Positions 8,139-44,924 of a stretch of DNA of 64,000 bases are shown piece after piece (the stretch's first letter is position 1; every line of letters starts with the position of its first letter). The DNA comes from a virus (Duplodnaviria > Caudoviricetes): positions 1-64,000 of IMG/VR virus record IMGVR_UViG_3300032243_000867; one strand, written 5' to 3'. Made by a program: the position numbers and the translations under genes. The notes below the pieces were generated by a model. It did not search any database. It saw nothing but the letters and a program-made list of their open reading frames with translations, and was not told the origin of the DNA.

Positions 8139-8636
8139 ATGAAGAAGAAGTCCAGCGAGCACGGTGCCGGGTCTGACGGCAACTACATGACGAAGCAGAA
8201 CCTGTGGCTCGCCCACCGCGTGAGCCAGATGCTCTACAACGGCATCCCCGACGGGGTTCTTCTCCCCGATTGGGCCGAGAGCAAGATCAACAGCGCCGCC
8301 CAGCACCTGAAGGAGGTCGCCGGGTGGGCGATGCACGAGTCTCACGGCGATAACCTTCACCCCGCCCCCGAGGCGAACCCCATTCACCTTGCGGGTGAGG
8401 GGGAGCTAAGGTCGAAGCTGGTCCGTCTGGCTCACGAGAACCCCGATCTCCGCCCCCACCTCCTCCCGCTGCTGACCAAGACGGCGGCGGGGGACAAGTG
8501 CGTGGTGTGCGGCAAGCCGGGGGAGGAGATCCGTTACAACGTCCGGGGGTCCGACGGGACGGAGCTCGCGGGGCGCGTGTTCATCAAGGGCTCGGTGCTT
8601 TGCGACAAGCACCAGGAGATGCTCGAAGGCACCTGA
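8139..8636 (+). CDS. Putative head-associated protein carrying the LRSKxxRLAH tag
   Basis: LPDWAESKINSAAQHL helical segment; internal LRSKLVRLAHENPDLRPHLLPLLTKTAA; C-terminal CVVC. Confidence 0.7.
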   Translation: MKKKSSEHGAGSDGNYMTKQNLWLAHRVSQMLYNGIPDGVLLPDWAESKINSAAQHLKEVAGWAMHESHGDNLHPAPEANPIHLAGEGELRSKLVRLAHENPDLRPHLLPLLTKTAAGDKCVVCGKPGEEIRYNVRGSDGTELAGRVFIKGSVLCDKHQEMLEGT

Positions 8637-8672
8637 CCGCCCGGGAGCGAAGAATAACACCAACGAGAAAAG

Positions 8673-8715
8673 CCGCCCCCCGTACCCCGGCGCGATGCCG
8701 GGGTACGGGGGGCGG
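8673..8715. terminator. Bidirectional terminator between convergent genes
   Basis: Perfect 19-bp stem CCGCCCCCCGTACCCCGGC/GCCGGGGTACGGGGGGCGG, A-run before and T-run after. Confidence 0.75.
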
Positions 8716-8720
8716 TTTCG

Positions 8721-9176
8721 TTACGCGGGGGAGACGCCGGGGAGGGACTTGAGAGACACCCGCGGGGTGTTCGGCACCAGGTCCGCCACGCTCGCGACGT
8801 GCGCTTGCACCGCGGGCGGGAAGCAAGCCAGGAAAGTCGGGTCCGCCTTCCGAAGCGAGAGCTTCACCTCGTAGATGGCGTTGAACAGGTCTCCCAACGC
8901 AGCCCTCTCGCCGTCCACCGTCGCGGCGGGGGTGAGCTTCAGCGACGGTCCGGGCACGACCACCTTGGCTTGGGTGAGCCCGTCACCGTCGAAGGTGACG
9001 GTGGATTTGCCAGAGGCGACCGCGAGGGCGCGCACCTCGCGCTTAAAGGGCTCCAGTGCCTCCTGGCACGCCTCGATGGCGTTCCAGAGCGCGGAGGCAG
9101 CGGCCACCTTCGAGGCGAGAGGGGCGGCGGGGTCGTTGATGAGGGCGGTGTGGGCGCTGATGTCGAGGGCTTTCAT
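8721..9176 (-). CDS. Hypothetical protein
   Basis: AAAGGA RBS; MKALDISAHTALIND...; ends at the terminator. Confidence 0.7.
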   Translation of the reverse strand: MKALDISAHTALINDPAAPLASKVAAASALWNAIEACQEALEPFKREVRALAVASGKSTVTFDGDGLTQAKVVVPGPSLKLTPAATVDGERAALGDLFNAIYEVKLSLRKADPTFLACFPPAVQAHVASVADLVPNTPRVSLKSLPGVSPA

Positions 9177-9238
9177 GATCGTGGTCCTTTCGTAGCGGCT
9201 GAGCCGCACCGGGTTGGATTCGGAATATTCGTACGGGT

Positions 9239-9308
9239 CGGTGACCGCCGCAGGACTCGAACCTGCGTCCCGACCGAGGCGCGATGACGGTAGCGCCGTC
9301 GGGCGGTT
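9239..9308 (-). ncRNA. tRNA-like minihelix element 4
   Basis: Acceptor-like AACCGCC/GGCGGTC (6 of 7), central GGCGC/GCGCC hairpin, perfect T-arm GCAGG-TTCGAGT-CCTGC, discriminator A, then CCG. Confidence 0.55.
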
Positions 9309-9394
9309 TCCATAGGCTCGCGGGGGAGGTTCCCGCAAGCACGGTCGTAAGGGGGAAGCGCCCGCCCCCCGGCAACGGGGGGCGGGCCGGTCCG

Positions 9395-10333
9395 TCACTT
9401 CGCGACCGTGCTGGAGGGAGGGGTTTCGTCGGCGTGGTACAGGCCGAAACCCGGCAGGTACCGAATCGAGTCCCCCGCCTTGATCGGGCGACCCGAGGCC
9501 GCGCAGATGCCGTCCACGCGGGCCTTCAGGGTCATGCCCGCGTCGGGCGCGGCCTTGGCCGCGGAGGGGGCGTTCGCCGCGCCCACCGCCGCGTCGAGCT
9601 TGGCGACCGACGCGGTCACCGGGGAGGGCGCGGCGGGCGTCTCGGTGGAGAGCTTGCTGGCCAGGAGCGTCAGCGTCGCCGCCTTGGCGTTCCGGCACCA
9701 CCCAGCGAGGGGGCACTTGCCGCACTCGCCGGACTTCGCCGCCCACGCGCCGAAGCACTCGGTGGAGGCCACCGCGAGGGCGCGGATGTCGTCGTCGTTC
9801 AGCCACGCGGGCACGTCCGCCGCGGGCGCGTTCGCCGCGGGCGCGTTCGCCACCTTCAGGCGGCGCTTCGCCGCCACCGGGGCGGGCGCTTCCGGGGCGG
9901 GCGCTTCCGGGGCGGGCGCTTCCGGGGCGGCGGCGGGCTCCTCAGCCCGAGCCATCGCGGGGGGCTCCGCCGCGGGGGTCGCGGCGGGCTCGTCGGGGGT
10001 GGGGGCCGTTCCCGCTTTGCGGGGCTTGGGAGCCCCGAGGTACTTGTCCCGGTCCTGCGGCGGGAGCGTCCCGCTCGCGAGGGCCTCGCGGCCCAGGTCC
10101 GTGATGGCCCACGTTCCGCGCGTGGGGTCGGACACGATCCCGCGTGCCTTGAGGTCCCACTTCCCGTTGCCCACCGCAGTGCGGTGGGCCTTGTCGGCGG
10201 GGTCGCCGCCGAGCTCCTTGAGGGCCGCGTCCACGGCGGCGTCCACGGCGAGCTCGCCGTTGGGGGCACCCGCCAGGGCGCGGAGCAGGGGGAACTGGGT
10301 GGTGGACTGGCTGATTTTGTTCGTCATCGTCAT
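9395..10333 (-). CDS. Mrr-N-like winged-helix protein with Ala/Pro linker and Cys clusters
   Basis: PLLRALA...LKARGIVSDPTRGTWAITDLGREAL resembles the Mrr N-terminal domain; EAPAP x3 linker; ECFG...ECGKCPLAGWC and C-terminal CAASG...H. Confidence 0.7.
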   Translation of the reverse strand: MTMTNKISQSTTQFPLLRALAGAPNGELAVDAAVDAALKELGGDPADKAHRTAVGNGKWDLKARGIVSDPTRGTWAITDLGREALASGTLPPQDRDKYLGAPKPRKAGTAPTPDEPAATPAAEPPAMARAEEPAAAPEAPAPEAPAPEAPAPVAAKRRLKVANAPAANAPAADVPAWLNDDDIRALAVASTECFGAWAAKSGECGKCPLAGWCRNAKAATLTLLASKLSTETPAAPSPVTASVAKLDAAVGAANAPSAAKAAPDAGMTLKARVDGICAASGRPIKAGDSIRYLPGFGLYHADETPPSSTVAK

Positions 10334-10349
10334 CGTCTCCTTCTGCCCC

Positions 10350-10379
10350 CTAACCGGAAGCCGGGGGGGTCCATTAGTG
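10350..10379 (-). promoter_or_regulatory. 30-bp leader motif copy 6
   Basis: cactaatggacccccccggcttccggttag, directly before the AAGGAG of 9395..10333. Confidence 0.7.
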
Positions 10380-10395
10380 CGAATCAACCGGGCAT

Positions 10396-10451
10396 CGGTC
10401 GATTCCTCAGCCCCTCCGGGGTTACGCCCGGAGGGGCTGAGGAATCGACCG
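10396..10451. repeat. Perfect 25-bp inverted repeat (hairpin)
   Basis: CGGTCGATTCCTCAGCCCCTCCGGG-GTTACG-CCCGGAGGGGCTGAGGAATCGACCG. Confidence 0.9.
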
Positions 10452-10484
10452 GAGCGTTGCACTCCGGTCGCAGCGGGGGGGCCG

Positions 10485-11684
10485 TCAGACGGCGGGGGCG
10501 GCGAGGGGGTCGGCGGACACGTGGGAGGTGTCGCCCTCCTCCACCGCCCCGCCCTTCAGGTGCGGATCGACCAGGCGCTTGAGGGCCTCGCGGGTGTCCT
10601 CATTGGGAGCGCCCGCGAGGATGTCCTGGAGGCCCGAGCGGATGACGCGGGAGGCGGCGATGCCCGTGTAAAAGGTTGCCTCGACGGCCACGGCATCCAT
10701 CCAGTTGGACACCGTGCGGTGTCCGAAGTCGAGGAACAGTTCCTCCTTCTCGACGGCGTCGCGGATCGCCGTGGTCGCCCGCATCACGGCGGGGATCAGG
10801 TCGGGGAAGCGCGCCGCGAGCGCCGGGTACTTCGCGCGGAGCAGGGGCTCCTCATCGCGAGGGTCCATGTTGCTGAACGTCACCTTGAAGGTGAAGCGAT
10901 CCAACACGGACGTGTCCACCGGGGTCGCGGTGTAGCGCCCGGAGGTGTCGCCGCCACCCGCGGTGTTCGCGGTGGCGACGATGAGCGTACCGGGGAGCAC
11001 CTTGTGCATCCCGTTCGCGGCGGGCACGCGCCCGCCGAGGCTGTCGAGGATGGCGCGCAGGGGCTCCATCTGAGCCCGCGTTGCGCGGTCGATGTCGCTG
11101 AGGACGATCAGGTACGGGATCACCCGCCCGTCGGCGGTCTTGTAGCCGTCCCGCAGCGCGCGGAGGAGGTCGCCCTCCTCCCAGTACGTGCCCTGCGGCC
11201 CGAGCGCGCGGGTCGCCAACCACCCCTGGATGTCGGCATCCGGGGTGATGTTGAACACTCGCGCGGGGAGGCGCATCCGGGCGCTCAAGGCGCTGAAGAC
11301 CGCGTCCTTGCCCGTTCCGGGCGGTCCCCAAACCCAGAGGGGCTTGCTGTTGCCCGCCGCGACGCGGGCGGCGACGCGGCGCACCGCGTCGGCCAGCTTC
11401 CCGAAGCCCGGAACCGCGTACGCGGCGGGCAGGGGCAGACAGGCGTCCGCCGGAACGTCGAGGTTGACGGGCATCGGGATGCCCGCGAAGCGCGCGGTCA
11501 CCCCGCCAGCGGGGTTGAAGGCCGCGCGCCGACGCCCCTTGACGTGCGCGTCGTGCGCGGCTTCGAGGGCGGGGGAGGCGGTCTCCCCGTCGTACTCACC
11601 CTCCCCGAGCCCGTGGGCTTCGAGGAGGTGGGGGACCAGATAGTGCGCCTCGAAGGCGCACAGGTTGCACTTGAGCTTCGTCAT
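10485..11684 (-). CDS. MoxR/CobS-like AAA+ ATPase with N-terminal C2H2 zinc finger
   Basis: CNLC...HLLEAH; Walker A GPPGTGKD; Walker B-like IVLSDIDRA; ATANT; VLDRF; alternative start 11690. Confidence 0.85.
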   Translation of the reverse strand: MTKLKCNLCAFEAHYLVPHLLEAHGLGEGEYDGETASPALEAAHDAHVKGRRRAAFNPAGGVTARFAGIPMPVNLDVPADACLPLPAAYAVPGFGKLADAVRRVAARVAAGNSKPLWVWGPPGTGKDAVFSALSARMRLPARVFNITPDADIQGWLATRALGPQGTYWEEGDLLRALRDGYKTADGRVIPYLIVLSDIDRATRAQMEPLRAILDSLGGRVPAANGMHKVLPGTLIVATANTAGGGDTSGRYTATPVDTSVLDRFTFKVTFSNMDPRDEEPLLRAKYPALAARFPDLIPAVMRATTAIRDAVEKEELFLDFGHRTVSNWMDAVAVEATFYTGIAASRVIRSGLQDILAGAPNEDTREALKRLVDPHLKGGAVEEGDTSHVSADPLAAPAV

Positions 11685-11772
11685 CGTCATCCTCCGAATC
11701 GAGCAGGGACCGTTACGCCCGCGCTGCGCCACCGTGGCGCTGCACCCGCGTCCATCCGTCCCCCTCCGTTGC

Positions 11773-11802
11773 CTAACCGGAGGGGAGGGGGGTCCCTTAG
11801 TA
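11773..11802 (-). promoter_or_regulatory. 30-bp leader motif copy 7
   Basis: tactaagggacccccctcccctccggttag. Confidence 0.7.
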
Positions 11803-11860
11803 GGAATCAACCGCCCATCGGTCGATTCCGTCCGCCTCCCCCGCCGTCCCCCCGCAACCC

Positions 11861-11890
11861 CTAACCGGAAGCCGGGGGGGTCCATTAGTG
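11861..11890 (-). promoter_or_regulatory. 30-bp leader motif copy 8 (variant B)
   Basis: cactaatggacccccccggcttccggttag. Confidence 0.7.
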
Positions 11891-12055
11891 GGAATCGAAC
11901 GAATCGCGTAAGTACGCGAAACCATTAGGGAATCGGTCGGCACGGATTGTGCTAATCGTACGCGCGCGATCCGGTAAAATGGGGGCGCGGGGATTGACCT
12001 ACGTTACCCTACGTTACGTTACGTTCAGAGAATCGAGGGGGGCCGTTTCGATTTT
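11891..12055. repeat. Divergent control cassette core, copy 2
   Basis: Direct repeat of 1251-1414 (identical 48-nt and 36-nt blocks). Confidence 0.85.
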
Positions 12056-12085
12056 CACTAAGCGACCCCCCTCCCCTCCGGTTAG
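12056..12085 (+). promoter_or_regulatory. 30-bp leader motif copy 9 (variant A)
   Basis: cactaagcgacccccctcccctccggttag. Confidence 0.7.
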
Positions 12086-12143
12086 GCGTCGGAAGGGGAA
12101 CGGGAACGGTCGAACGGAATCGACCGCATGGCGTAACGAATTT

Positions 12144-12173
12144 CACTAATGGACCCCCCGGCGTTCCGGTTAG
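12144..12173 (+). promoter_or_regulatory. 30-bp leader motif copy 10
   Basis: cactaatggaccccccggcgttccggttag, just before the AAGGAG of the vWA gene. Confidence 0.7.
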
Positions 12174-12186
12174 GGGTCGGAAGGAG

Positions 12187-14394: not shown

Positions 14395-14401
14395 CCCCCT
14401 A

Positions 14402-14464
14402 GCCTGAACGGTTCGCCCCGGTGATCACCGGGGCGGCGAGGTTCGATTCCCCGCCCAGGCTCCA
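14402..14464 (+). ncRNA. tRNA-like minihelix element 5
   Basis: GCCTG/CAGGC acceptor-like pairing (5 of 7), perfect 10-bp central hairpin CGCCCCGGTG/CACCGGGGCG, T-arm CGAGG-TTCGATT-CCCCG, discriminator T, CCA. Confidence 0.55.
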
Positions 14465-14518
14465 ACGCACATCCCCTCAACCAAGGGCCACCATGGCCCC
14501 GCGAACTGAAAGGACACC

Positions 14519-14857: not shown

Positions 14858-15123
14858 TGAAGACCGCGGCCCCCGACGCCCTCCCCGGCAACGGGGTTCA
14901 CTACCTCGTCACGGTGACGTGGCGGGGACGGATGCACGTAGACCCCCTCCGGGTGTTCGCCCGCGAGGGGGACGCCCGCGCCCTCGTGGGCGGGACCGCC
15001 CCCAAGCCGTCCCCCGCCCGCCGCCCCGGCTGGCACCCCTGCGGCTACCCGGGGTGCTCCCCGCACTACTGCGACGAGTGCGATGGCAAGGGCCGTGGCC
15101 TTCGCAGCTACGGGGAGTGGTGA
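14857..15123 (+). CDS. Hypothetical protein with C-terminal Cys cluster
   Basis: TGATG overlap; HPCGYPGCSPHYCDECDG. Confidence 0.55.
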   Translation: MKTAAPDALPGNGVHYLVTVTWRGRMHVDPLRVFAREGDARALVGGTAPKPSPARRPGWHPCGYPGCSPHYCDECDGKGRGLRSYGEW

Positions 15124-16533: not shown

Positions 16534-16543
16534 CCTTCAGAAG

Positions 16544-19393: not shown

Positions 19394-19416
19394 ATGCCCT
19401 ATGCCCCGTGCGGGGC

Positions 19417-19779
19417 ATGAGCGACCTACGTTCCAAAATCATTCGGCTGGCTCACCAGCAGCCGCATCTCCGTCCGCAGCTTCTCCCTCTCCTCAAGGCG
19501 GCGGGCAATCTGGGCGAAGAGCTCAACCCGTACCTTCTGGAGTTCGACAAAGTGCCCGCGTCCGAGGAGGACATGGAAGAGGCCCAAGAGAACCTCGACA
19601 ACGCGAGCAACGACCTCCAAGGGATCGTGGAGGACACGTCGCGAAATGTCGCGGCCTTGGTAAAGAAGGCCCTTCGGGAGAGCGGCAAGTTCAACAAGTT
19701 CTTCAGCGGGGGGAGCGCCGAACTGTTCCACGACGATCTCGTCGCTTCGGTGATCTCGGCGGTCCACAACGCCAAGTGA
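19417..19779 (+). CDS. Protein with N-terminal LRSKIIRLAH tag
   Basis: MSDLRSKIIRLAHQQPHLRPQLLPLLKAA + acidic helical domain. Confidence 0.75.
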   Translation: MSDLRSKIIRLAHQQPHLRPQLLPLLKAAGNLGEELNPYLLEFDKVPASEEDMEEAQENLDNASNDLQGIVEDTSRNVAALVKKALRESGKFNKFFSGGSAELFHDDLVASVISAVHNAK

Positions 19780-20771: not shown

Positions 20772-20795
20772 CGGTTCTATCCCCGCGACGGGGGT

Positions 20796-21920
20796 ATGCC
20801 GTCCCTGCGTTCGCGGGTCATTCGTCTCGCCCACCAGCAACCCGGTCTCCGTCCGCACCTGTTGCCCCTGCTCAAGTCGGCGGCGCTCCCCCCGGCGCAG
20901 ACGTGGCTGGAGATGCAGCTTGGCAAGGTGTTCCACTCGGAGGCGGCGGGACACGAGTTCTGGTTCATTCCGCAAATGCCTACAAAGAGCGGCACCGCCA
21001 AGGGCTTGCTCGTGGCTTGGTCGATTGTGGATCAGCGCAAGCCCCCGAAGGCCAAGCAGTCGAGCCTTCCCGAAAGGGACCTGTCGGGTCCCCGCTGGAA
21101 GGTGGTCACGGCGAAGGACCTCCCCGACGATGTGGTTGACCGCTTCCGAGACGCGGGCGTCCGGGTGGCTTCCGTGCGGGAGGCGGGGGACGTGATCCCG
21201 TTTGCGGGTCGCGCTCCTCGCAACTCGCACACGGTGACCCTCGCGGGAGACAAGTACGTCCTGTCCACCCATTCGGGCGGGATGATGGGCGACCTCATGG
21301 AGCTCCCCGAGGAAGCCGAGGAAGGGGCGCGCATCATCCACGTTCGCCCCGAAGACCCGTGGAAGTTCCTCTGGGCCTACGACACGGACCATCAGGTTCT
21401 GGCCATGTGGCGGGTGTCGGACGGCAACGAGAAGGAGTACGGGTCTGCTAGGTCACTGACGGCGCTGTTGGTGAAGCTCGACAAGAAGGGCGAGCTCAAC
21501 CGTGTGTCGGGTGCCCAGTTCCGGGCCATCGAGACGGCGATGCGCGCCCAAGACGAAGCCCACACCCGTGCGTTGGAGCAGTGGGTCGAGGAGACCAAGA
21601 CCACCTCCCAGCGGGACGCGGACGCCCTCGTGCGGGAGTACTTCGACACGAAGGTCCGCCCCGCGATGGACCGTGCCGTCCGTGACGTTGAGCAGGGTGT
21701 GATCCCGCTGGGCTTCAAGGCCAACCCCGGTGGTTTTCCGGTCGATAGGCAGATGAAGTCCTACGTCACGGGGAAGCTGTACGAGAAGCTCCTCGACCTC
21801 GACGTGATCGACGCCTACGTCCGGTCGCAGGGCGGGGACCTCGACGCGATTGACAGCCAAGCAACCCAGTGGGCGCGGGACGACGTGTGGTTCGACTACC
21901 TCAAGTCCGTCCTGCGCTGA
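20796..21920 (+). CDS. Protein with N-terminal LRSRVIRLAH tag
   Basis: MPSLRSRVIRLAHQQPGLRPHLLPLLKSAA; 374 aa. Confidence 0.75.
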   Translation: MPSLRSRVIRLAHQQPGLRPHLLPLLKSAALPPAQTWLEMQLGKVFHSEAAGHEFWFIPQMPTKSGTAKGLLVAWSIVDQRKPPKAKQSSLPERDLSGPRWKVVTAKDLPDDVVDRFRDAGVRVASVREAGDVIPFAGRAPRNSHTVTLAGDKYVLSTHSGGMMGDLMELPEEAEEGARIIHVRPEDPWKFLWAYDTDHQVLAMWRVSDGNEKEYGSARSLTALLVKLDKKGELNRVSGAQFRAIETAMRAQDEAHTRALEQWVEETKTTSQRDADALVREYFDTKVRPAMDRAVRDVEQGVIPLGFKANPGGFPVDRQMKSYVTGKLYEKLLDLDVIDAYVRSQGGDLDAIDSQATQWARDDVWFDYLKSVLR

Positions 21921-21935: not shown

Positions 21936-22217
21936 ATGAGCACTCTTCGTTCCAAGGTCATCCGGCTCGCGCACCAGCGTCCAGAGTTCCGCCCCCACCT
22001 TCTCCCTCTCCTGAAGGAAGCGGCTATGCCCCCTGCGGACCGAAAGAAGAAGGTTGCCGAGATCTTCAAGAGGTTCAAAGGGATCGGTGATGGGATGGTC
22101 CGTGGCGGGAAACACACGATTCGGATCGCCGTCGAGGGTCACAACACCGTAGTGCTGGAAGACGCCACCGACGAGGAGATCGACCGCATTTACGCGAAGT
22201 ACATCCGCAAGCTCTGA
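21936..22217 (+). CDS. Small protein with N-terminal LRSKVIRLAH tag
   Basis: MSTLRSKVIRLAHQRPEFRPHLLPLLKEAA. Confidence 0.75.
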   Translation: MSTLRSKVIRLAHQRPEFRPHLLPLLKEAAMPPADRKKKVAEIFKRFKGIGDGMVRGGKHTIRIAVEGHNTVVLEDATDEEIDRIYAKYIRKL

Positions 22218-32236: not shown

Positions 32237-32282
32237 ACGGTCCGCGCCCCCCGTTCCCTAGCCTATACGGCACGGCTTTGTG

Positions 32283-34664
32283 ATGCCCGCCAAGATCGCT
32301 AAAATCGCCAAAGCCAACGTAGCCCTGCTTCGGCAAGAGACGCAGTTCTCCTGCTGTGCCGCCTCTATCGCATCCGCCTTGAAGGCCCACGGGAAGGACA
32401 TGACCGAGGCCGGGGTCAACAAGGTGCTCGGTGCCAGCCCGATGGGCGGGGCGACGTGGGAGGCGATGCTGGCGACGGTGCAGTATTTCGGCCTTCGGGG
32501 AACCCTCGTTGTCCCGTCCACCCTCGCCCAACTGAAGGCGTGGACCGACGCGGGCATCCCGGTCGTCATCGCTTGGAATCCCGAGGGTCGCCCGTGGTCG
32601 CACGCCTCGTGCGTGTTTCATGTGGACGACGAGCAGAACGTCCACGTCATGGACCCCAACATCCCCGACCCCAGCGAGACGGTGAGAATCGTCCCCAAGT
32701 CCGAGTTCTACCGGAAGTGGGCTGAGGCGGTGGGGGACAACCTCATCGTTCGCCGCCCCGCGATGGCGATTGAGCGCGAGGTCACGGCAGACGGTCGTCA
32801 GGTCATGGCCAGCGGCAAAGAGGCGATTTTCTTTCAAGGCGTCACCCGAGAGATGGACCGCCTACGCCGCGAGAAGCTGGCACCCCCTTCTCGCAGCCCT
32901 TCTCACCCGGCCCCCCCTAGCTGGAGGAAGTTGAAGGAGGAGGAAGAAGCCCCCAAGGTGAAGTCTTGGGTGGGCCGTCTGTTCGACAAAACCGGGGAAT
33001 CCGAGGAGGGCATCATGGCAGGCAAAAAGGAGCGCCGGTCGCTCAAGGACAAGAGCATGGCTCGGTTCCTTGAGCGCGGACCCGTGCGCCCCGCGGATAA
33101 GTCCGACGCCGCCAAGGCGATGTCCAAGGCCCAGTGGGAGCTCCGCAAAGAAGAGGGCCGCGCGGGCCTCCCGGGTGCGGGCCTCGGCGCGGGCTACCAC
33201 AAGGACAAGTCTCAGTACAACCGCGGGAATGGCAAAGGTATCGAGCGCGAGGCGGAAAGCCTCACCCAGCCCCTCATGACCCGCCGAGACTACGGCGCGG
33301 TCACGGCCAGCGACTACGCTAGCATCCTCAAGTACGCCGTGGACCTCCCCGCCGACGTGGAGCGGTACGTCGAAGAGGGCACCGATGCGGGGATGCCTGA
33401 AGACAAGGCGTGGGCCGTCGCATGGTCGCGGTACTGCAAGTACAAGAACCCCGAAAGCGAGCACTGTCAGATGAACAAGTCAGAGTATTTCCCCGGTCGC
33501 AAGGCCAAGTTCGAGCGCGGCGTGTCCATGACCGTGGACGAGGTGGCCGAAGTCGTCGGCCCCGAGTTCAAGGAGATGAACGAAGACCCGCCCGAGTCCG
33601 TGAAGAAAGTGATGGAGGGGATGCAGGGAAAGACGGCCCGCCGTTCGCCCCTCCTCGCGATGGAGCAGTTCGCGGATATGCTCCGGGACGGCAAGTTCGA
33701 GGAGGGAGTTCCCGCCGACCCCACCGAGAACATGAGCCCCGAGGACGCCGCCGAGTGGGAGCGTCAGACCGAGGAGCACAAGCACGAGTTCAAGGGGGCG
33801 TCTCTCGAAGCGGTGCTCCACCGCGACGACGACGGCACCGTGCCCTTCGACCTGTTCTTCAACCGCACCGCCGCCCCGAAGCTGGTGTGGAAGGTGAACC
33901 GAGTGCTGGGAGCCCAGTATGCCGAGACCCCTGTCGGTACCTACTGGATTCACCCAGAGGGGAGGAACTACGAGATCCGGCTCGACAACACCCCAGTGGG
34001 CTTCTCGGGGCAAGACCAGTACGCGGAAGACCCCTCGGCAGATGCCAAGAAGATGGTAGAGGCCCACTACGCCAAGGCTCTGCGGGGCAAGACTGCCGCT
34101 GTAACGGCGGGCGGCAAATGGGGCTTCACCAAGGGCACCGAGAGTGCGTGTACGGCGGGGGTGAACAAGCTCTCGAAGTCGGCGTCTCGCATCGCCAAGG
34201 CTCTGTACGCGAAGGACGAAGGCTCGGTGGGCTTCCTCCAGAAGCACTCGGCGAAGGCGGGCAGCAAGACGGCTTCGATGCTTCTCAAGGCGATGGAAGA
34301 CATCGGCCCGATGGCGGCTCTCGCCAAGAACGGCAAAACCGCTGGCAAGTCGGGCAACGGCCTGTACGGCTTCAGCGAGAAGACCGCCAAGCTGGGCCTC
34401 GACGCTTGCAGCGCCCTTCACCACGAGGCGGGCGTGATCGCCGCTGACCTGTTCGCCCGCAAGGGTGCCGACCCCGTGAAGGTGGCGGGCTACCTCACGG
34501 CGAACGCCAAGAAGGGCAAGTGCGCGTTCAGCGACTTGCTCGCAGAAGTCGCCCCGGACGTGGCCGTGGAAGTCACGGGCTCGGTCAAGAAGAAGGCCAC
34601 GGACTTCCTCGCGGCGGACGAGAACGCCGACGACGAAGTGGCCGACATCATCAGCAAGTGCTGA
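32283..34664 (+). CDS. C39-like cysteine peptidase domain protein with long C-terminal region
   Basis: RQETQFSCCAASIA, WSHASCV, VMDPN; multiple K/R-T-A sites in the C-terminal part. Confidence 0.8.
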   Translation: MPAKIAKIAKANVALLRQETQFSCCAASIASALKAHGKDMTEAGVNKVLGASPMGGATWEAMLATVQYFGLRGTLVVPSTLAQLKAWTDAGIPVVIAWNPEGRPWSHASCVFHVDDEQNVHVMDPNIPDPSETVRIVPKSEFYRKWAEAVGDNLIVRRPAMAIEREVTADGRQVMASGKEAIFFQGVTREMDRLRREKLAPPSRSPSHPAPPSWRKLKEEEEAPKVKSWVGRLFDKTGESEEGIMAGKKERRSLKDKSMARFLERGPVRPADKSDAAKAMSKAQWELRKEEGRAGLPGAGLGAGYHKDKSQYNRGNGKGIEREAESLTQPLMTRRDYGAVTASDYASILKYAVDLPADVERYVEEGTDAGMPEDKAWAVAWSRYCKYKNPESEHCQMNKSEYFPGRKAKFERGVSMTVDEVAEVVGPEFKEMNEDPPESVKKVMEGMQGKTARRSPLLAMEQFADMLRDGKFEEGVPADPTENMSPEDAAEWERQTEEHKHEFKGASLEAVLHRDDDGTVPFDLFFNRTAAPKLVWKVNRVLGAQYAETPVGTYWIHPEGRNYEIRLDNTPVGFSGQDQYAEDPSADAKKMVEAHYAKALRGKTAAVTAGGKWGFTKGTESACTAGVNKLSKSASRIAKALYAKDEGSVGFLQKHSAKAGSKTASMLLKAMEDIGPMAALAKNGKTAGKSGNGLYGFSEKTAKLGLDACSALHHEAGVIAADLFARKGADPVKVAGYLTANAKKGKCAFSDLLAEVAPDVAVEVTGSVKKKATDFLAADENADDEVADIISKC

Positions 34665-34676: not shown

Positions 34677-36083
34677 GTGGACCTGATCGCCCGCGTTGAG
34701 ACCCCCGAGTCCCGCGCGTTTGCACGGGACGAAGCCGCACGGGCGAAGCACGCCCAGGGTGCCGTGCGGGCGTTTCGGGCGCTGGCGGTGGCTTCCGCCC
34801 CGATGGCGGAAGAGGCGAAAGCTGCGTTCCCCGGTAGGGATCAGCAGTCCCTCGACCGACGGTTGCGGGCGTTCACCAAACTGGCGAAGGAAAACGACGC
34901 CGTCCAGAAGTACCTCGACCAGTGGATCGGCACGGAGGACGTAGACCCGTCCGCGTACTCCTGGCGGTCGAAGATCACCTACGCCCTGCGGGACTACCTA
35001 CTGGGCGGGCTGAAACTCTCTGATACCGTGGCGGTGGTCGAGAAGTACGCGCTGGTGAGCTTTCAGGCCATCACCATGCACGCGGTACAGGCCCCCATCC
35101 GTGAAGCCCTGCCCGCGGAGGTGATGGCGTACCTCCCGAAGACGGTGGTGGTGAAGGTGGACCCGAAGGGGAAGATCACCGAGGTCACCGACCGTTTCAA
35201 GAACGAGTACTTCACGTTGGCCCTGAAGGCCAAGCAGATGCGGAAGATCCTCGCGGGCTACAACCGCATCGCCCGTGAGGTGAAGAAGGATCTCAAGAGC
35301 CCGGACGAGACGACCCGCCTATCGGCCATCGTCACGTCGATCATCATGGAAACGGGCATTCGTCCCGGCAAAATCGGCAACGGCAAGGTGGTGTTGAAGG
35401 GCGGGTCGGAGGAGTTCGTCGAAACCTTCGGCGCGGCGACGCTGGGACCTTCGCACGTCAAGTTCGTGCGGGACAACTTCGCGGAACTGGAGTTCGCGGG
35501 CAAGAAGGGCGGCATCAACACGGCCCGGTTGTCCGACGCCGACATTGTGAAGGTGCTGAAGGACTATGTCGCCAAGGCGCTGAAGTCGGGCTCCCCCTAC
35601 ATCTTCGTGACGAAGGGCGGCACCCCTTACGACTACAACGACCTCGACAGGTACTTCCGGCAGAAGATGGAAGGCATCAACCCCACGGACTTCCGAAAGC
35701 TCCGAGCAACCGAGGAAGTGCTGAACGCCATCGTTGAGGAGCAAGAGGGCCTGTACGGGCGCATTCGCAAGCTCAAGTCTCTCAAGAAGGATGCCCTCAA
35801 GCAAGCCATCGTGTCCGAGGTGGTAGCCACCCTTCAGCGGGCCATCGAGCGGTCCCAATCCGCCCTATCGCACGAGAGCGATACGACCACGGTGGAGAGC
35901 TACATCCACCCCGGCGTTCTGTTTCGGTTCCTGTCTACGGGGCGGCTCGAAAAGAATCTGGACGACCTGCTGGCGACGGGCAAGACGGAACTGAAGTTCG
36001 ACCCCGAAGCGTTCCTCTCCCAAGCGATGGGTAAGAAGGCTTCGGCCTCTCGCGTCGCCGCGCAGTACCTCAGTTCGCGGTAA
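34677..36083 (+). CDS. DNA topoisomerase IB
   Basis: ETGIRPG, ATLGPSHV, LEFAGKKG, TDFRKLRAT, LSHE...ESYIHP catalytic pentad pattern. Confidence 0.85.
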   Translation: MDLIARVETPESRAFARDEAARAKHAQGAVRAFRALAVASAPMAEEAKAAFPGRDQQSLDRRLRAFTKLAKENDAVQKYLDQWIGTEDVDPSAYSWRSKITYALRDYLLGGLKLSDTVAVVEKYALVSFQAITMHAVQAPIREALPAEVMAYLPKTVVVKVDPKGKITEVTDRFKNEYFTLALKAKQMRKILAGYNRIAREVKKDLKSPDETTRLSAIVTSIIMETGIRPGKIGNGKVVLKGGSEEFVETFGAATLGPSHVKFVRDNFAELEFAGKKGGINTARLSDADIVKVLKDYVAKALKSGSPYIFVTKGGTPYDYNDLDRYFRQKMEGINPTDFRKLRATEEVLNAIVEEQEGLYGRIRKLKSLKKDALKQAIVSEVVATLQRAIERSQSALSHESDTTTVESYIHPGVLFRFLSTGRLEKNLDDLLATGKTELKFDPEAFLSQAMGKKASASRVAAQYLSSR

Positions 36084-39817: not shown

Positions 39818-39852
39818 CCCGCCTATAGGGTTGCACCTGTAGAGGTGCCCGT

Positions 39853-40650
39853 ATGTCCATCGTGCTGAACGGCGAGAAGATCGCCACCCCCGGCCTTGAA
39901 ACCTTCTCGTGGCTCGACGACCACAACGTCCCCAAGACCACGGACGTGAACCCGCGCACGCAGTGGCTTCGGGCCATCGTGATGCACACGGTATCGGGCA
40001 AGGTCGGGGGCTTGAAGCCCGGTCTGTCCGCGCCGTCGTCGCGCGCGGAGTCCTACGCCAAGTACCAAGCGAACACCAGCCGCGACGTGTCGTGGGACTA
40101 CACCATCGACACGGACGGAACCATCATCGCTAGCAACGACCCGCTCAAGTTCTACACCTGGCAAGCCACGTCGGTGAACCCCTTCACCCTCGGGATCGAA
40201 CTCGTGCAGGAGGACAACGGCGACCTGTACGAAGGCCAAATGGACGTGGCCGTGCGGTTCCTCGACCTACTCACCCGCGAGCTCGCGGACCGGGGTCACC
40301 CGATCCAGCGACAGGTGCCGATGACGATGGACGGGAAGCCCGTGAAGGGGATCGTGAAGCGCATCGAGGACTCGTCCCAAGCCAAGAACTTCTCTGGTGT
40401 GGTGGGCCATCGCAATCAGACCACGAACCGTGGACCCGGCGATCCCGGCGATCATATCTTCAACGCGCTGTTGAAGGCGGGGTACAAGGGATTCAACCTC
40501 GACGCGAACGACGACGTAAGGTTCTGGAAGGACATTCAGACCCGTCTGAACCTGTCCCCGGCGGACGGCATTCCCGGTCGCGGCACGCAGCAAGCCCTCA
40601 TCGCGGCGGGCTACAAACACGGGCTGATGGTCACCCGCCCCGGTGACTGA
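39853..40650 (+). CDS. N-acetylmuramoyl-L-alanine amidase (endolysin) with C-terminal PG-binding motif
   Basis: IVMHT, SWDYTIDTDGTI, TLGIEL, VVGHRN; ADGIPGRGTQQAL. Confidence 0.8.
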   Translation: MSIVLNGEKIATPGLETFSWLDDHNVPKTTDVNPRTQWLRAIVMHTVSGKVGGLKPGLSAPSSRAESYAKYQANTSRDVSWDYTIDTDGTIIASNDPLKFYTWQATSVNPFTLGIELVQEDNGDLYEGQMDVAVRFLDLLTRELADRGHPIQRQVPMTMDGKPVKGIVKRIEDSSQAKNFSGVVGHRNQTTNRGPGDPGDHIFNALLKAGYKGFNLDANDDVRFWKDIQTRLNLSPADGIPGRGTQQALIAAGYKHGLMVTRPGD

Positions 40651-40656
40651 TCCCGG

Positions 40657-41235
40657 TCAGTCGTCTTCGCGGCTGTAATCGGTCGGCGTCCCTCGGGCGG
40701 CGAGCGCACGGTAGAACACCTCGCGGCAGTCGAGGGCGTCTTGGAGGGCCGTGTGGGCACCCTCCCGCGACAGGCCCAGATGATCTCGAAGGCTGTCCAG
40801 CGAGAGCTTGAGGTTCCCGTCCAGCCCCCACGCCATGTACGCCACCGTGGTGGTGTCGATGGTGCGGTGTGAAATCCGGGCGTCCACCCCCGCGCGCTTC
40901 AGTTCCGCCGCGATGAACCCCGTGTCGAACTTCGGGTTGTGACCGATGATCGTTCCACCCTTCAGGTGCTCGACCAGTTCCCCGGCGATGGCGCTGAAGG
41001 GTGGGGCGTTCGCCCACGCTTCGGGCGTGTACCCGTTGACCTTCAACGCGACGGGTTCAGCCGTCTCGATGTGCTGCGGGGCGACCTTCCGTGACCACAT
41101 GAGAGTGATCTTCCCCGGCCCCGTGTACGGGTACTCGACCTCTTCGCGCACGATGGCGACCTCGATCACCTCGTTGACGGTGGGGTCGAGCCCGGTGGTC
41201 TCGGTGTCGAGGTAGATGCGAACGATGGTTTCCAT
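40657..41235 (-). CDS. DEDDh 3'-5' exonuclease (DnaQ-like)
   Basis: LDTETTGL, GHNPKFD, HTALQD. Confidence 0.9.
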   Translation of the reverse strand: METIVRIYLDTETTGLDPTVNEVIEVAIVREEVEYPYTGPGKITLMWSRKVAPQHIETAEPVALKVNGYTPEAWANAPPFSAIAGELVEHLKGGTIIGHNPKFDTGFIAAELKRAGVDARISHRTIDTTTVAYMAWGLDGNLKLSLDSLRDHLGLSREGAHTALQDALDCREVFYRALAARGTPTDYSREDD

Positions 41236-41276
41236 AGGGTAGGTTTCCTATCGGCCCGCAAGGGTGAGGAGTCTAC

Positions 41277-41633
41277 ATGACCGCCAGCGCCCGTAGGGTT
41301 GTTGCACGCTACCTATCCGCCGCCCCCCTTCGCCTAGACCCAGCGGTGACGAGAACGGTGGACCTAGCCTTGGTGAAGGCGGGGATGGACGGGAACAGCC
41401 CGTTCCGAAGCACCTCCCTCGCGGTCAACCGCATCGGAGAGGTTCTGTCGTCTCACTCCCTGGGTCTCTCGGGGCTGAACGCGGCATCGGTGCGGGGAAG
41501 CGAAGGAGAGGCTTCCGCGAGGTTGGTGTCCCGGAACGCCGAGGGGATGGCGATGCTGACCACCTCGAAGCTGACCCTTCAGTGGGTCACGGCGGACGAC
41601 GGAACCGTGAAGGTCGTTGCCTACCTGACCTAG
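41277..41633 (+). CDS. Hypothetical protein with N-terminal RRVVARYL motif
   Basis: GAGGAG RBS; MTASARRVVARYLSAA. Confidence 0.7.
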   Translation: MTASARRVVARYLSAAPLRLDPAVTRTVDLALVKAGMDGNSPFRSTSLAVNRIGEVLSSHSLGLSGLNAASVRGSEGEASARLVSRNAEGMAMLTTSKLTLQWVTADDGTVKVVAYLT

Positions 41634-41742
41634 ACGACCTCGACGACCCGGAAAGTTTTGAAGATGTCCGGGCCGTGCGGGTGGACCGGAAGGTAGTCGT
41701 CTACCGTCCCGCCGCGGAGCTTTACCAAGTTTTTGGCGTGCG

Positions 41743-41928
41743 TCAGCGGAGTATCGTTCGCGGTTCCCTTCCCCGAAGGGCGCACCGAAACCCGGCATCG
41801 TCGAGACGGCACGCAGGCACGTCCGCGCCGCGAGACGCGGCGCGCACCCTCGACGGTACGTTGCTGTACCAACAGCCGCCGCGTTGGACGCGAAGGCGGG
41901 TGTCAGTGGGCTTGGTGGTGGGGTTCAT
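41743..41928 (-). CDS. VR-like micro-ORF 6
   Basis: MNPTTKPTDTRLRVQRGGCWYSNVPSRVRAASRGADVPACRLDDAGFRCALRGREPRTILR. Confidence 0.75.
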   Translation of the reverse strand: MNPTTKPTDTRLRVQRGGCWYSNVPSRVRAASRGADVPACRLDDAGFRCALRGREPRTILR

Positions 41929-42083
41929 ACTCGGGGGCTCCTTCCCGGCAGGTGGGTTCGGAACCCGTGGTCGCGGAAAAAAATTGTGGGCTTGTACTCT
42001 TGAAACGACGCGGCGGGTAGGAAGGCCGCGAGGTGGTACCAAGACCCGCCACGAATCACGCGAAGCCGGTTGTCGATCCTCAC
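41925..42083 (-). CDS. VR-like micro-ORF 7
   Basis: GAGGTG RBS; VRIDNRLRVIRGGSWYHLAAFLPAASFQEYKPTIFFRDHGFRTHLPGRSPRV; ATGA overlap. Confidence 0.7.
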   Translation of the reverse strand: MRIDNRLRVIRGGSWYHLAAFLPAASFQEYKPTIFFRDHGFRTHLPGRSPRV

Positions 42084-42253
42084 AGCGTCACCTCGTAGGG
42101 GTGGACCAGGACGTAATCGTAGTCGTCGATTCGACCGCGCGAGTCCACGCGGAGGGTTTGGACGTAGGCGTTCGCCCCCTCCTCCGTGGCGAACACGCCA
42201 CGGATGAAACGGTCCCCGTGGACCCAACCCGCCGTTACGATCCAGACGGTCAT
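42080..42253 (-). CDS. Small hypothetical protein
   Basis: MTVWIVTAGWVHGDRFIRGVFATEEGANAY...; GGGCGTAAC 7 nt upstream. Confidence 0.6.
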   Translation of the reverse strand: MTVWIVTAGWVHGDRFIRGVFATEEGANAYVQTLRVDSRGRIDDYDYVLVHPYEVTL

Positions 42254-42261
42254 GCGGGATG

Positions 42262-43110
42262 TTACGCCCGCAGGTCGCGCAGAACGGCGGTGAGTTTAGC
42301 CGCGATGCCGCCGGGGAGATCCGCCACCGCGCCGCCGTTCAGGACGTGTTCGACGGCGGACGCGAGGTGGGGTTGCCCGATACGGGTGAGGTGCCTACGC
42401 ACCATGTCCACCCGCGATTTGCGGGCGAGAGCGTCTTCGGGAGAAGGGGCCGCAGGATCGTGAAGGTCCGGGGTGGAGAGGGTGTCTTCACGGTCCCGCA
42501 CTACTTCCCGTGCGGTGTCGGCGGACTGAACCACCCGCCACGCCTTCCCAGCTTGCACCTCACGGGCGGTCTTCGCCCCACGGGTCATACGGGTGGAAGC
42601 GTCTACGCCCCAGCGGCGAAGCTCAGTGCTGGCGCTCTGGTAGGCCCAGACGCGCAACACCGACAACTTCACTTCTTTGCCGTCGCGGAGAAACGGGGCG
42701 AGAGTGTCCCGCTCAACGAAGCGGGCAAGAACCGTCTGGACATGATCCTCGACGACGGAGAGCTCCCGCGACAAGGGCATCTTCGACGCCAGATGCGCCA
42801 CCAGAGCGGGATATACCTTCGCGTAGTTGTCCCGCACCCAGCGTGCGGTCAAGCTAACCTTCGTTTCCGTGCGGGGGAGGGGTTCCTCGCCTCGAACTAC
42901 GGCGAGGGTAGTGCGGCACGCCCCGGGCTTCTGAGCGACGGTACCTTCCGCGAAGTCCCCACGCGCGACCGCGAGGGCGGCGAGAGCCAACGGGCTGCGG
43001 CAACCCCCGAAAGCTCGCACGGCGCGATCAGCTACTTCCACCTCGCGGGCGGCGACGATTACAGCAGATCCCCCAACAGCGAACGGCGAAACGGTGGTGT
43101 ACAAGGACAT
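42262..43110 (-). CDS. Hypothetical protein, possibly a divergent sigma-like factor
   Basis: Helical; VEDHVQTVLARF...VLRVWAYQSASTELRR loosely resembles ECF region 2; tentative. Confidence 0.55.
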   Translation of the reverse strand: MSLYTTVSPFAVGGSAVIVAAREVEVADRAVRAFGGCRSPLALAALAVARGDFAEGTVAQKPGACRTTLAVVRGEEPLPRTETKVSLTARWVRDNYAKVYPALVAHLASKMPLSRELSVVEDHVQTVLARFVERDTLAPFLRDGKEVKLSVLRVWAYQSASTELRRWGVDASTRMTRGAKTAREVQAGKAWRVVQSADTAREVVRDREDTLSTPDLHDPAAPSPEDALARKSRVDMVRRHLTRIGQPHLASAVEHVLNGGAVADLPGGIAAKLTAVLRDLRA

Positions 43111-43256
43111 TAGAGTCTCCGTTGGTTAGTCCCGGGGGTCAAGACCCTTGGGGTTACAGGGGGGAGATCTTAACGTAGGGTGGTCCGGGGGTCTACTAAA
43201 TTCGTACGACCGCTCGGGCGGCCAACGCCGTTAGGCGTTCTATTACGCGCGAAGGG

Positions 43257-44924
43257 TTGACCTCCCCTGCCTACGGGGGCGGAACCCCCGAAGTGAAGGA
43301 ACTCTCTGCCATGGATCGTATCGCCGCTCGGAACATCGTTCGCAGGGTGCTGTTCGCCATGATCGCGAAGCATCAGGCGAATCAAGCCCCCCTCCCCAAG
43401 AAGGCGTCTCTCCCGACGGGGAACGTGCTGACGGGGTTGGATATGCTGGCACGCGCCCAGTTCCTGGAGGGTCTGGCGGGTAAGCCTTTCGGTTCAATCT
43501 CCTCCAAGGCGGGGGGCGGGAGGCCGGTGGCCAAGAAGGTCATCGGGAAGTTGCTTCTCCTTCTCGATCCGACTCTCAACCCTGCGGACCTCGAACCGAA
43601 GCACGAGAAAGAAGTCGAAAAAATTCCGGCGGGTCCCGGAATGACGGGCAGCAAGCTGAACGAATGGGTCAGCGACGCCGGGGCTTCCGGCCTCTACCGT
43701 TCCGCATGGCTCGGGGCGAACCGCGCACTGGCCCGTACTCGCGGGCCGACGGGCTCGGGTCTTGAGGCGACGGATGTCCTCACGGCGAATATGCTTCGCT
43801 TCATCGACCCTTCTTCGGGGGAGCCCGCGATGGACGAGGCTGCTCTCGAAGAGTTCGCCCAATCCGCGAGCATGGGGGAGAAGCAAGAGGTTCTTGAGAA
43901 CCAAGAGAAGGCCCTTCGGGACGGCGTTCTGGAAGAAGCCGCCAACATGGGCAACTTCTTCTGGATGGCCGGAAAGAAGATGCAAGCGGCCAAGGCGAAG
44001 ATCCTCTCCGAGGATATCGGCATCGACCGTCTCGGTGGAATCGTCGCCCGGTACGCCTTCAACGACGCGAGCAAGCTCGTGGAGAAGCTGGAGACGGAAT
44101 CCCGCGCACTGGCCCGCGCGCTGAAGTTGGATATGCTCCCCGGCGCTAACGAGGAGCGGGCCGACTTCGACCTGGGAGAGCTCACCCCCACGGGTTGGGG
44201 TTACGTCATCCAGGCCGTCCTCGGGGACCCGAACAGCCACTTCTCGCAGGAAGTGTTCGACTGGATGCTGGACGACGTGAAGTTCCACCCTTCCCTCAAC
44301 GACAAAGAGAAGCAGGTGATGACCGCGTACGTCCAGGCCGTGATCGACGGGCGGCTGTCGGGCTTCATGAGCGCCGAGGGGGCGAGCGCGGGTCGTGGCG
44401 CTGACCGGGGCTTCATCGAGGACTACAACCGCCGGAACCCCGACGCCACCCTCACCCCCAACTACTTCGGCGTCGTCAAAAACAAGTATTTTGGAAAGGA
44501 CGGGGCGGAAGTTGCGAAGCGTCTTCACGACGAAGCCCCCGAGTGGAAGCTGGACGCAGAGGACCAGTTGTTCCTGATGAACGCGCAGAAGGGTCGCGGG
44601 AAGTTCGCCGCTCAGAAGGTCGCCGCCGAGGAGCGCGCCCTGCGCTCCAAAATCATCCGTCTGGCGCACCAGAACCCGGCGATGCGCCCGCACCTTCTCC
44701 CGCTGCTGGTTCGCACGGCGGCGGGGGAAGAAGGAACGCTGGCGGGGCGGACGTGGGGCGGTCCGGGCGCGGGCCGTGACTGGGACTGGAACAAGCCCGA
44801 GTATGCTTCGCACGAGGATTCCCCCCCCGCGGGTTCCAACGGCAGCACCGAGCGCGCGGAGTACAACAAGTGGTACCGCGAGAACGTCTGCCCTTCCAAG
44901 CACGGCACGGGTTGCGGTCTGTAA
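43257..44924 (+). CDS. Large protein with LRSKIIRLAH tag near the C-terminus
   Basis: 555 aa; ALRSKIIRLAHQNPAMRPHLLPLLVRTAA at 44640-44723. Confidence 0.75.
   Translation: MTSPAYGGGTPEVKELSAMDRIAARNIVRRVLFAMIAKHQANQAPLPKKASLPTGNVLTGLDMLARAQFLEGLAGKPFGSISSKAGGGRPVAKKVIGKLLLLLDPTLNPADLEPKHEKEVEKIPAGPGMTGSKLNEWVSDAGASGLYRSAWLGANRALARTRGPTGSGLEATDVLTANMLRFIDPSSGEPAMDEAALEEFAQSASMGEKQEVLENQEKALRDGVLEEAANMGNFFWMAGKKMQAAKAKILSEDIGIDRLGGIVARYAFNDASKLVEKLETESRALARALKLDMLPGANEERADFDLGELTPTGWGYVIQAVLGDPNSHFSQEVFDWMLDDVKFHPSLNDKEKQVMTAYVQAVIDGRLSGFMSAEGASAGRGADRGFIEDYNRRNPDATLTPNYFGVVKNKYFGKDGAEVAKRLHDEAPEWKLDAEDQLFLMNAQKGRGKFAAQKVAAEERALRSKIIRLAHQNPAMRPHLLPLLVRTAAGEEGTLAGRTWGGPGAGRDWDWNKPEYASHEDSPPAGSNGSTERAEYNKWYRENVCPSKHGTGCGL

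Follow-up and report, generated by a model that had tools for sequence, protein, structure and literature searches.

A short basic tag on otherwise unrelated proteins of an uncultured huge phage is a candidate label for loading cargo into the phage head

The 64,000-nucleotide (nt) stretch analysed here, called the window, opens a single 265,895-bp contig of 64% GC (IMG/VR record IMGVR_UViG_3300032243_000867), itself part of the genome of a huge phage that has not been cultured. Five proteins encoded in the window share a tag of about 23-28 residues and nothing else that we could detect. The tag recurs elsewhere in the contig and in other phages of one broad clade, is under selection as protein sequence, sits at either end of its carriers or inside them, and is bordered far more often than expected by the tripeptide [KR]-x-A. 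In the reading that we favour, to which we give about an even chance, it is a portable label that would direct its carriers into the head and be excised there by a maturation protease; that destination, the cleavage and the later ejection of the carriers are what we infer from the sequences laid out below.

A six-frame scan of the window with the pattern LRS[KR]..RLAH..P..RP.LLPLL returned five matches with zero mismatches, all on the + strand (Table 1). The translations place these copies at the coordinates and in the reading frames that an initial annotation of the window had given them, each followed by the tail reported there (TKTAA, KAA, KSAA, KEAA or RTAA). When a profile built from the copies was run over the whole contig, nine tagged open reading frames scored 52-67 bits and the next frame scored 8.9 bits, a gap that excludes a chance origin of the tag. 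The four copies beyond the window start at contig positions 136691, 200648, 225205 and 230308. A further stretch at about 255,636-255,704 of the contig reads GVIRLAHANPALRPHLLPLLTRW, with stop codons right before and after it; what lies near 255,650 appears to be a decayed tagged gene.

The initial annotation had also held that the tag is conserved as protein and that its carriers are otherwise unrelated, and both claims were borne out. When the nine copies were compared, identity was 41% at codon position 3 against 84% at positions 1 and 2, and 58% of codon pairs for the same residue used different codons; the 60-nt flanks on either side of the tag were about 30% identical between copies. Because third positions and flanks are randomised, selection acts on the protein and not on a DNA repeat, and on the same grounds we rejected a repeat or recombination site at the level of DNA. 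Once the tag was masked, the lowest pairwise BLASTP E-value among the nine carriers was 0.10, so the carriers are unrelated apart from it.

Most of the information in the tag is held by a core of 23 residues, LRSKxIRLAHxxPxLRPHLLPLL. Within this core A9 is conserved at 100%, R16 at 97%, P13 at 96%, and L8, L20 and P21 at 92% each, followed by L1, R2, I6 and R7 at 80-88%; K4, H10 and H18 are also frequent. AlphaFold2, given a 145-row alignment and 36-residue windows, predicts a helix-Pro-helix fold, with helices at 2-14 and 16-30 broken at the conserved proline (mean predicted local distance difference test score, pLDDT, 81). A Foldseek search of this model against PDB returned non-significant rows alone, all helical hairpins. 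A Sec or Tat signal peptide was considered and rejected: the core is broken by R7, H10, R16 and H18, position -3 of the putative cleavage site is K/R where a small residue would be expected, and internal and C-terminal copies exist.

A fold of this kind might instead belong to a structural repeat, a single LRV- or HEAT-like helical unit spread by domain shuffling and without any addressing role. The families LRV_2 and DUF6193 do match tag copies below threshold, the helix-Pro-helix pattern is similar, and one carrier has a genuine LRV domain between two tags. These matches, however, reach 13-16.5 bits against a Pfam cut-off of 27, a lone 23-residue unit cannot form a solenoid, the copies stand apart on long disordered linkers and are not stacked, and both their flanking sites and the strictness with which they are placed at termini speak for a signal. 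We regard a structural repeat as most improbable.

The initial annotation had proposed a profile search of the genome and of public phages, and a search of this kind showed the tag to be widespread. Run against 1.84 billion cluster representatives, the profile of the nine copies matched 3,320 proteins at E<=0.001, 394 of them at E<=1e-10. The best 150 of the 3,320 proteins yielded 338 copies, of which 121 were N-terminal (within 15 residues of the end), 56 C-terminal (likewise within 15 residues) and 161 internal, in keeping with the position independence first suggested for the five window copies. Two to five copies were borne by 143 of these 150 proteins, a selection that favours multi-copy proteins because the scores of their copies add up. 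The closer relatives in IMG/VR (74 loci, on contigs of up to 485 kb) usually have a single tag 1-5 residues past the start of a small protein. Multi-tag proteins as a whole bear 2-6 tags, joined by linkers with a median of 168 residues that are rich in K, E and D.

Contigs with distant, lysine-rich, low-GC carriers are syntenic with ours, with the same gene order and with 66% identity in the large terminase (TerL) and 63% in the portal, so the tag is confined to one broad clade. Within that clade, an uncultured 485-kb relative (LR745208.1) has 11 tag copies in a search of its whole record. A degenerate DNA pattern for the core found three matches in 596 Gb of bacterial and archaeal genomes, all on short contigs of metagenome-assembled genomes, and a word-indexed protein search with the tag region found eight. 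Judged by these searches, the tag is phage-specific, and no cultured phage in the searched collections has it. The three metagenomic contigs come from freshwater bins of Actinomycetota, Acidobacteria and Terriglobia, and, of cultured phages, the one closest in its capsid protein has an acidobacterium (Tunturiibacter) as host; together these are a weak hint at a host of acidobacterial or actinobacterial type. Full-text searches of the literature, for the peptide itself and for capsid targeting in huge phages, turned up no paper that describes the tag. It is thus undescribed and very widespread, and the class of mechanism that we propose for it, that of capsid-targeting and cargo-loading peptides, is already established.

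The borders of the tag are as regular as its core. N-terminal copies start 2-5 residues past the protein start and C-terminal copies mostly stop 1-2 residues past L23. At positions -4 to -2, [KR]xA occurs in 73 of 226 copies that are not N-terminal, where these proteins have 1.2% per position as background; within +1 to +5 it occurs in 195 of 294 copies against 3.6%, a downstream frequency that may be inflated, the downstream flank being partly inside the search profile. The enrichment over background is 18- to 27-fold on the two sides, and the commonest borders are K-x-A-S upstream and K-x-A-A downstream. Upstream, the profile covered positions -2 and -1 only, where its seeds had no consistent residues; the upstream site as such lies outside it, so that the way in which copies were collected cannot account for the upstream enrichment. 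The K/R-x-A tail noted in the initial annotation proved to be a real feature: [KR]-x-A lies within 8 residues past the core in 9/9 contig copies, where 6.7% is expected per window of that size (p ~3e-11), and likewise in 11/11 copies of the 485-kb relative.

Sites at fixed spacing on both sides of a tag could also mean that a phage peptidase recognises it, as an exosite or leader that controls activation or domain separation and not addressing. Besides the prohead protease, the window offers an alternative candidate for the processing peptidase in its C39-like protein. The gene for this protein is present in the window and in the tag-bearing 485-kb relative, and not in the tag-less Bacillus phage G or Tunturiibacter phage Tunturi_5, a co-occurrence that covers two genomes against two. 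At residues 453-515 (window 33630-33830) the protein has a short module, 'FEEGV.ADPT.NMSPED', which it shares with multi-tag proteins and which, as 'FEEGV..MSPED', is common to at least seven tag-bearing proteins of other phages. Many downstream flanks read A-(A)-G, loosely like leaders of the double-glycine type; a true double-glycine leader cut by C39 was rejected, as internal and C-terminal copies exist, the flank is K-x-A-A or K-x-A-G, not GG, and nothing ties the C39-like gene to export. A role in peptidase recognition alone further fails to account for C-terminal copies, most of which end 1-2 residues past the core and leave nothing to release, and for small proteins with a single N-terminal tag, which need no domain separation. 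We hold it to be decidedly unlikely, and it is compatible with head targeting, not exclusive of it.

Several indirect observations suggest the head as the place to which the tag leads. Maturation proteases typically cut scaffolds into pieces, and among 228 contig proteins the excess of [KR]xA[SA] is greatest in a candidate scaffold-like protein encoded between the protease and capsid genes (100840..102366), which has 12 sites against 2.55 expected from composition-preserving shuffles (z 6.2), in forms such as EKKA/SLRR and EKKA/AHFK. This protein is poorly ordered in its stored ESM Atlas model (pLDDT 0.42). Next among the large proteins comes 83157..85325, in which the sites belong to another motif, R-[FL]-A-[SA]; in the head-operon protein 96804..97526, four [KR]xA[SA] sites compare with 1.3 expected. 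The excess in the scaffold-like protein fits the idea that [KR]-x-A is the site of the maturation protease.

The prohead protease itself ends in a tag-like stretch. The string [LIV]IRLA occurs nine times in the called proteome of 77,949 residues, eight times in tags and once in this protease, 20 residues from its C-terminus, in the tail EARTLIRLAKL (contig 100768-100827). The 485-kb relative and five closer ones keep this tail, and in two distant relatives it survives as an amphipathic helix. Duda, Oh and Hendrix are said to have reported in 2013 that the C-terminal tail of the HK97 protease is a capsid-targeting signal. A tag-like helix at this position is suggestive of the head as the tag's destination. 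The Tunturi_5 protease ends in LRASFDRLLRK.

Some tagged genes also lie among head genes. The 485-kb relative has a tagged gene of 134 residues between its scaffold and decoration/capsid genes and another of 351 residues directly 3' of its capsid gene; in a low-GC relative, a 1,780-residue GNAT protein with five tags is encoded in the late operon directly upstream of TerL and portal; and the tagged gene at contig position 136682 is within the structural region. Four of the five window carriers have the promoter-like motif CTATCCC or a variant of it upstream (Table 1), and carrier 4, immediately 3' of carrier 3, is probably in one transcription unit with it. Of 279 genes, 14 have CTAT[CT]CC in the 150 nt before them, and four of the 14 are tagged; the others are mostly in the structural region at 73-190 kb, one of them in the head operon. 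Two more tagged units of the window are preceded by variants of the motif. The shared motif suggests that tagged genes are co-regulated with virion genes.

If the tag docks in the head, a nearly invariant peptide needs a nearly invariant reader, which makes the major capsid protein a receptor candidate. By tblastn it is 93.5% identical to its counterpart in the 485-kb relative, 47.6% to that of Tunturi_5 and 38% to that of phage G. It tops the conservation of the head module, in which its neighbours are 51-81% identical between our contig and the 485-kb phage (TerL and portal 77%, decoration protein 72%, protease 51-59%). Its homologues are 88-100% identical in all 120 cluster representatives listed, which come from many samples, and the neighbouring head proteins diverge to 50-60%. 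A complex prediction for the capsid protein and a 36-residue tag, run without controls, scored 0.00 and weighs on neither side of the question of binding.

The few recognisable domains among carriers are RelA_SpoT, ParBc_2, 2H-SAK, ART-PolyVal, GNAT, pentapeptide and WGR. At contig 225196..226713 the carrier's RelA/SpoT score is 25 bits, where the cut-off is 27; elsewhere there are two clear cases. The phage-type 'polyvalent' proteins, which are packaged and injected, have a similar domain repertoire (PMC5512222). Homologous proteins may be tagged in one phage and untagged in another, or tagged at opposite ends, and two untagged proteins of our contig (22233..23330 and 106959..107795) have tagged homologues in other phages. 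Variation of this kind is what one would expect of an address label and not of part of a functional fold.

Taken as a mechanism, the favoured reading would run as follows. Phages of the clade would graft the tag, a basic alpha-hairpin, onto unrelated proteins, and it would dock each carrier at a conserved component present in many copies within the assembling prohead, probably the capsid shell on its inner face or else the scaffold or core. A maturation protease would then cut the bordering [K/R]-x-A sites and free the cargo inside the head, from which RelA/SpoT-like, ParB-like, 2H, ART and GNAT enzymes would be ejected with the DNA. Proteins in which Lys/Glu-rich linkers join several tags would attach to the repeating lattice at many points and serve as scaffold-like or core proteins of the interior. 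Such a scheme can be made more specific still. The tag may be an excisable address cassette read by an assemblin-type protease whose own tail is half a tag; 'sticker-spacer' core proteins of 2-6 cassettes would fill a capsid of the phage G type and recruit single-tag enzymes, and the polyvalent protein would thus have been unbundled into dozens of addressed cargos. In this full form we find the proposal unlikely.

If the cassette version is true, a peptide of 28 residues is enough to load any protein into such capsids. More generally, if the head-loading reading is right, one sequence code in a widespread clade of uncultured huge phages selects the proteins that are packed in the head and injected; a sequence search would list each phage's injected arsenal, mostly of unknown function; the tag would be a short, position-independent handle for bringing foreign proteins into very large HK97-type capsids; and one tag per protein would be a second solution to the delivery of multiple effectors, beside the single giant polyvalent protein.

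A number of findings weigh against loading into the head. Most tagged genes of the contig are among non-structural genes, and those of the window adjoin a chaperonin and a DNA-binding protein. The scaffold-like protein and the head-operon protein 96804..97526 have no tag, nor does any of 120 homologues of the latter. The match in the protease tail comprises eight residues and requires a one-residue gap. K-x-A-A lies inside predicted helix 2 and may for that reason be a binding surface and not a cleavage site. The downstream count, as noted above, may be inflated. The two cultured phages compared here, phage G and Tunturi_5, yielded no tag in their whole records, and a tblastn search of GenBank phages with a three-tag protein had the uncultured LR745208.1 as its sole match.

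Because the scaffold-like proteins and the 120 homologues are untagged, the tag cannot simply be the motif with which the scaffold itself binds the capsid. Among 160 tag-bearing proteins we found no tagged homologues of capsid, portal, protease, TerL or scaffold proteins. Multi-tag proteins do share 'DEPYMxGxFT..E', part of a module of about 50 residues, with the head-operon protein 96804..97526 (contig 97134-97157). We considered whether tagged proteins are orthologues of this protein and rejected the idea: 0/120 of its homologues are tagged, and the 'DEPYMxGxFT' module alone is in common. The multi-tag proteins and the contig proteins with which they share such stretches are mosaics of several short modules.

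The position of most tagged genes outside structural modules would be expected if the tag were a docking 'sticker' for a hub that is not part of the virion. Its partner could be phage-encoded or another tag, and the product a cytoplasmic assembly or condensate, for instance a replication or takeover factory. The layout of 2-6 tags on long charged linkers is that of stickers and spacers, and variable positions of the tag agree more within than across proteins (0.38 versus 0.19 at position 18), an agreement that co-evolution with a lineage-specific partner of any kind would produce. A non-virion hub, however, leaves the [KR]xA borders, the [KR]xA[SA] excess in the scaffold-like protein and the tag-like tail of the protease unexplained, and tag-to-tag association is unlikely without an acidic partner because the net charge of the tag is about +5. 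We treat such a hub as a minor but real possibility.

The same charge could suit binding to a host hub protein or to nucleic acid, with the tag targeting effectors after infection. The core is strongly basic, with R2, R7 and R16 at 80-97% besides K4, H10 and H18, and the carriers include enzymes whose likely substrates are nucleotides or nucleic acids of the host. The core is nevertheless near-invariant across phages of very different base composition, and presumably of different hosts; Ala9, which never varies, and the prolines suit a specific packed hairpin and not a generic basic binder of DNA; and here too the flanking sites go unexplained. We rate this reading as very improbable.

Among known systems, the initial annotation had compared the tag with the internal proteins of phage T4. 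T4 IPI-III and Alt carry an N-terminal capsid-targeting sequence (CTS) of about 10-19 residues followed by L/I-x-E, which the prohead protease removes; its carriers are enzymes injected with the DNA, and the CTS can bring foreign proteins into the prohead. The comparison stands as an analogy of function and falls short in the particulars: neither a T4-like sequence, nor an L/I-x-E site, nor restriction to the N-terminus was found. The CTS is N-terminal only, unlike the tag, whose copies are spread over both ends and the interior as counted above, two of the five in the window being other than N-terminal. In place of L/I-x-E the tag has [KR]-x-A on both sides, with K-x-A-A as the consensus, and it is a predicted 23-residue helix-Pro-helix in terminal, inter-domain or tandem positions. 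The N-terminal signal of P1 DarB likewise directs proteins into the prohead and can carry foreign ones (PMC9024508). By analogy, these two are closest to the tag in function, as each is a short peptide common to unrelated proteins; in sequence they are unrelated to it.

The C-terminal tail of herpesvirus scaffolds is an amphipathic helix that binds the major capsid protein, and its M site is cut at Ala/Ser by assemblin, whose fold is shared with phage prohead proteases. The small-residue site there, x-A/S, resembles the K-x-A-S and K-x-A-A at the tag's borders, but it concerns one tail on one scaffold protein, whereas the tag is spread over many cargo proteins and its cleavage is putative. The C-terminal helix-turn-helix of the P22 scaffold docks to the inner side of an HK97-fold shell, and fusion to it encapsidates foreign proteins. 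The tag resembles this domain as a small basic two-helix motif, a likeness of predicted shape only. In P22 the domain belongs to the scaffold itself and no protease takes it off, whereas here the scaffold-like proteins are untagged, and the two have no sequence similarity. Encapsulin cargo-loading peptides are extended, Gly/Ser/Leu-rich stretches of about 10 residues, mostly C-terminal and uncleaved. They too put one short peptide on diverse enzymes inside an HK97-fold shell, and our phage has a capsid protein with the HK97 fold in a small, minimal form; the tag core, predicted to form two helices, is unrelated to them in sequence and predicted structure.

Against LRV (PF01816) and LRV_2 (PF25591) the tag scores below the Pfam gathering score, and the five window proteins have no match at E<=0.1. 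Judged by sequence, the tag is a member of none of these systems (T4 CTS, P1 signal, herpesvirus tail, P22 domain, encapsulin peptides, LRV), because it has no sequence similarity to them and no L/I-x-E, is not tied to one terminus, is not in a scaffold and lies below the LRV thresholds. Polyvalent proteins, described by Iyer, Burroughs, Anand, de Souza and Aravind (2017), are believed to enter the host together with the DNA (PMC5512222). The carriers resemble them in their repertoire of RelA/SpoT, 2H, ParB-like, ART, GNAT and peptidase domains (PMC5512222). The difference is that polyvalent domains are joined in one giant protein processed by an internal peptidase (PMC5512222), and here they are on separate small tagged proteins.

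Table 1. Tag copies, their carriers and other features of the window and of the remainder of the contig. Coordinates count from the first nucleotide of the contig, which is also that of the window.
Feature	Position	Strand	Remarks
Tag copy 1	8406..8474	+	LRSKLVRLAHENPDLRPHLLPLL; residue 90 of a 165-residue open reading frame, internal; followed by TKTAAG; 65 bits
Tag copy 2	19426..19494	+	Residue 4, N-terminal, frame 19417..19779; followed by KAAG; 61 bits
Tag copy 3	20805..20873	+	Residue 4, N-terminal, frame 20796..21920; followed by KSAAL; 57 bits
Tag copy 4	21945..22013	+	Residue 4, N-terminal, frame 21936..22217; followed by KEAAM; 67 bits
Tag copy 5	44640..44708	+	Residue 462 of 555, frame 43257..44924; followed by VRTAAG; 62 bits
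Carrier 1	8139..8636	+	165 residues; tag preceded by an N-terminal segment and followed by a Cys-rich (CxxC...C..H) segment at the C-terminus
Carrier 2	19417..19779	+	120 residues; helical, acidic
Carrier 3	20796..21920	+	374 residues
Carrier 4	21936..22217	+	93 residues; immediately 3' of carrier 3
Carrier 5	43257..44924	+	555 residues; alternative start possible at the ATG at 43311
CTATCCC promoter-like motif	20777..20783	+	19 nt upstream of carrier 3
CTATTCC variant	8004-8010		Upstream of carrier 1
CTATGCC variant	19399-19405		Upstream of carrier 2
CTATTAC variant	43240-43246		Upstream of carrier 5
C39-like peptidase protein	32280..34664	+	794 residues; C39-like domain N-terminal; four K-T-A sites
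Large terminase (TerL)	86743..88590		PHROGs
Portal	89174..90862		PHROGs
Head-operon protein	96804..97526
Head-maturation (prohead) protease	98071..100827		PHROGs; intein beside motif LSMG/C
Scaffold-like protein (candidate)	100840..102366		508 residues, Lys/Glu/Ala-rich, between protease and capsid genes
Major capsid protein	103265..104146		293 residues; matches Bacillus phage G gp27 (PDB 6wkk, E = 1.5e-60)

The five window carriers, and with them the tag, matched no Pfam (E<=0.1) or PHROG family, the ESM Atlas had no usable match for carriers 3 and 5, and GenBank phages gave no match to a 12-kb stretch (megablast) or to carrier 3 (tblastn). A 432-residue relative of carrier 5 likewise has its tag near the C-terminus. 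Besides these genes the window encodes a GroEL-like chaperonin, a type IB topoisomerase, RecD2-like and RecA-like proteins, an amidase and a class II (B12-dependent) ribonucleotide reductase with an intein. The inteins in the reductase gene (window 51991-54999) and in the prohead protease gene are both of the LAGLIDADG type.

The upstream motif, in the form (T)CTAT[CT]CC(C), is often accompanied by GTAGG 5-10 nt further on, and occurs in the contig at 92314, 114224, 121640, 136664, 163553, 169212, 189125 and 200594. Behind one CTATCCC lies the gene of a 1,060-residue protein (contig 189184-192366) with weak similarity to SNF2 helicases (E ~1e-3 against chains in PDB), a domain that serves as a hub in polyvalent proteins that are injected. 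Another short motif, [RK]VAxR[YFH]L, recurs where proteins end or domains meet, in many cases within the head operon. It occurs in the window at 36051-36071, the C-terminus of the type IB topoisomerase gene (34677..36083), and elsewhere in the contig at 93302, 93832, 96760, 97857, 110002, 134119 and 192871, and looks like a separate tag system.

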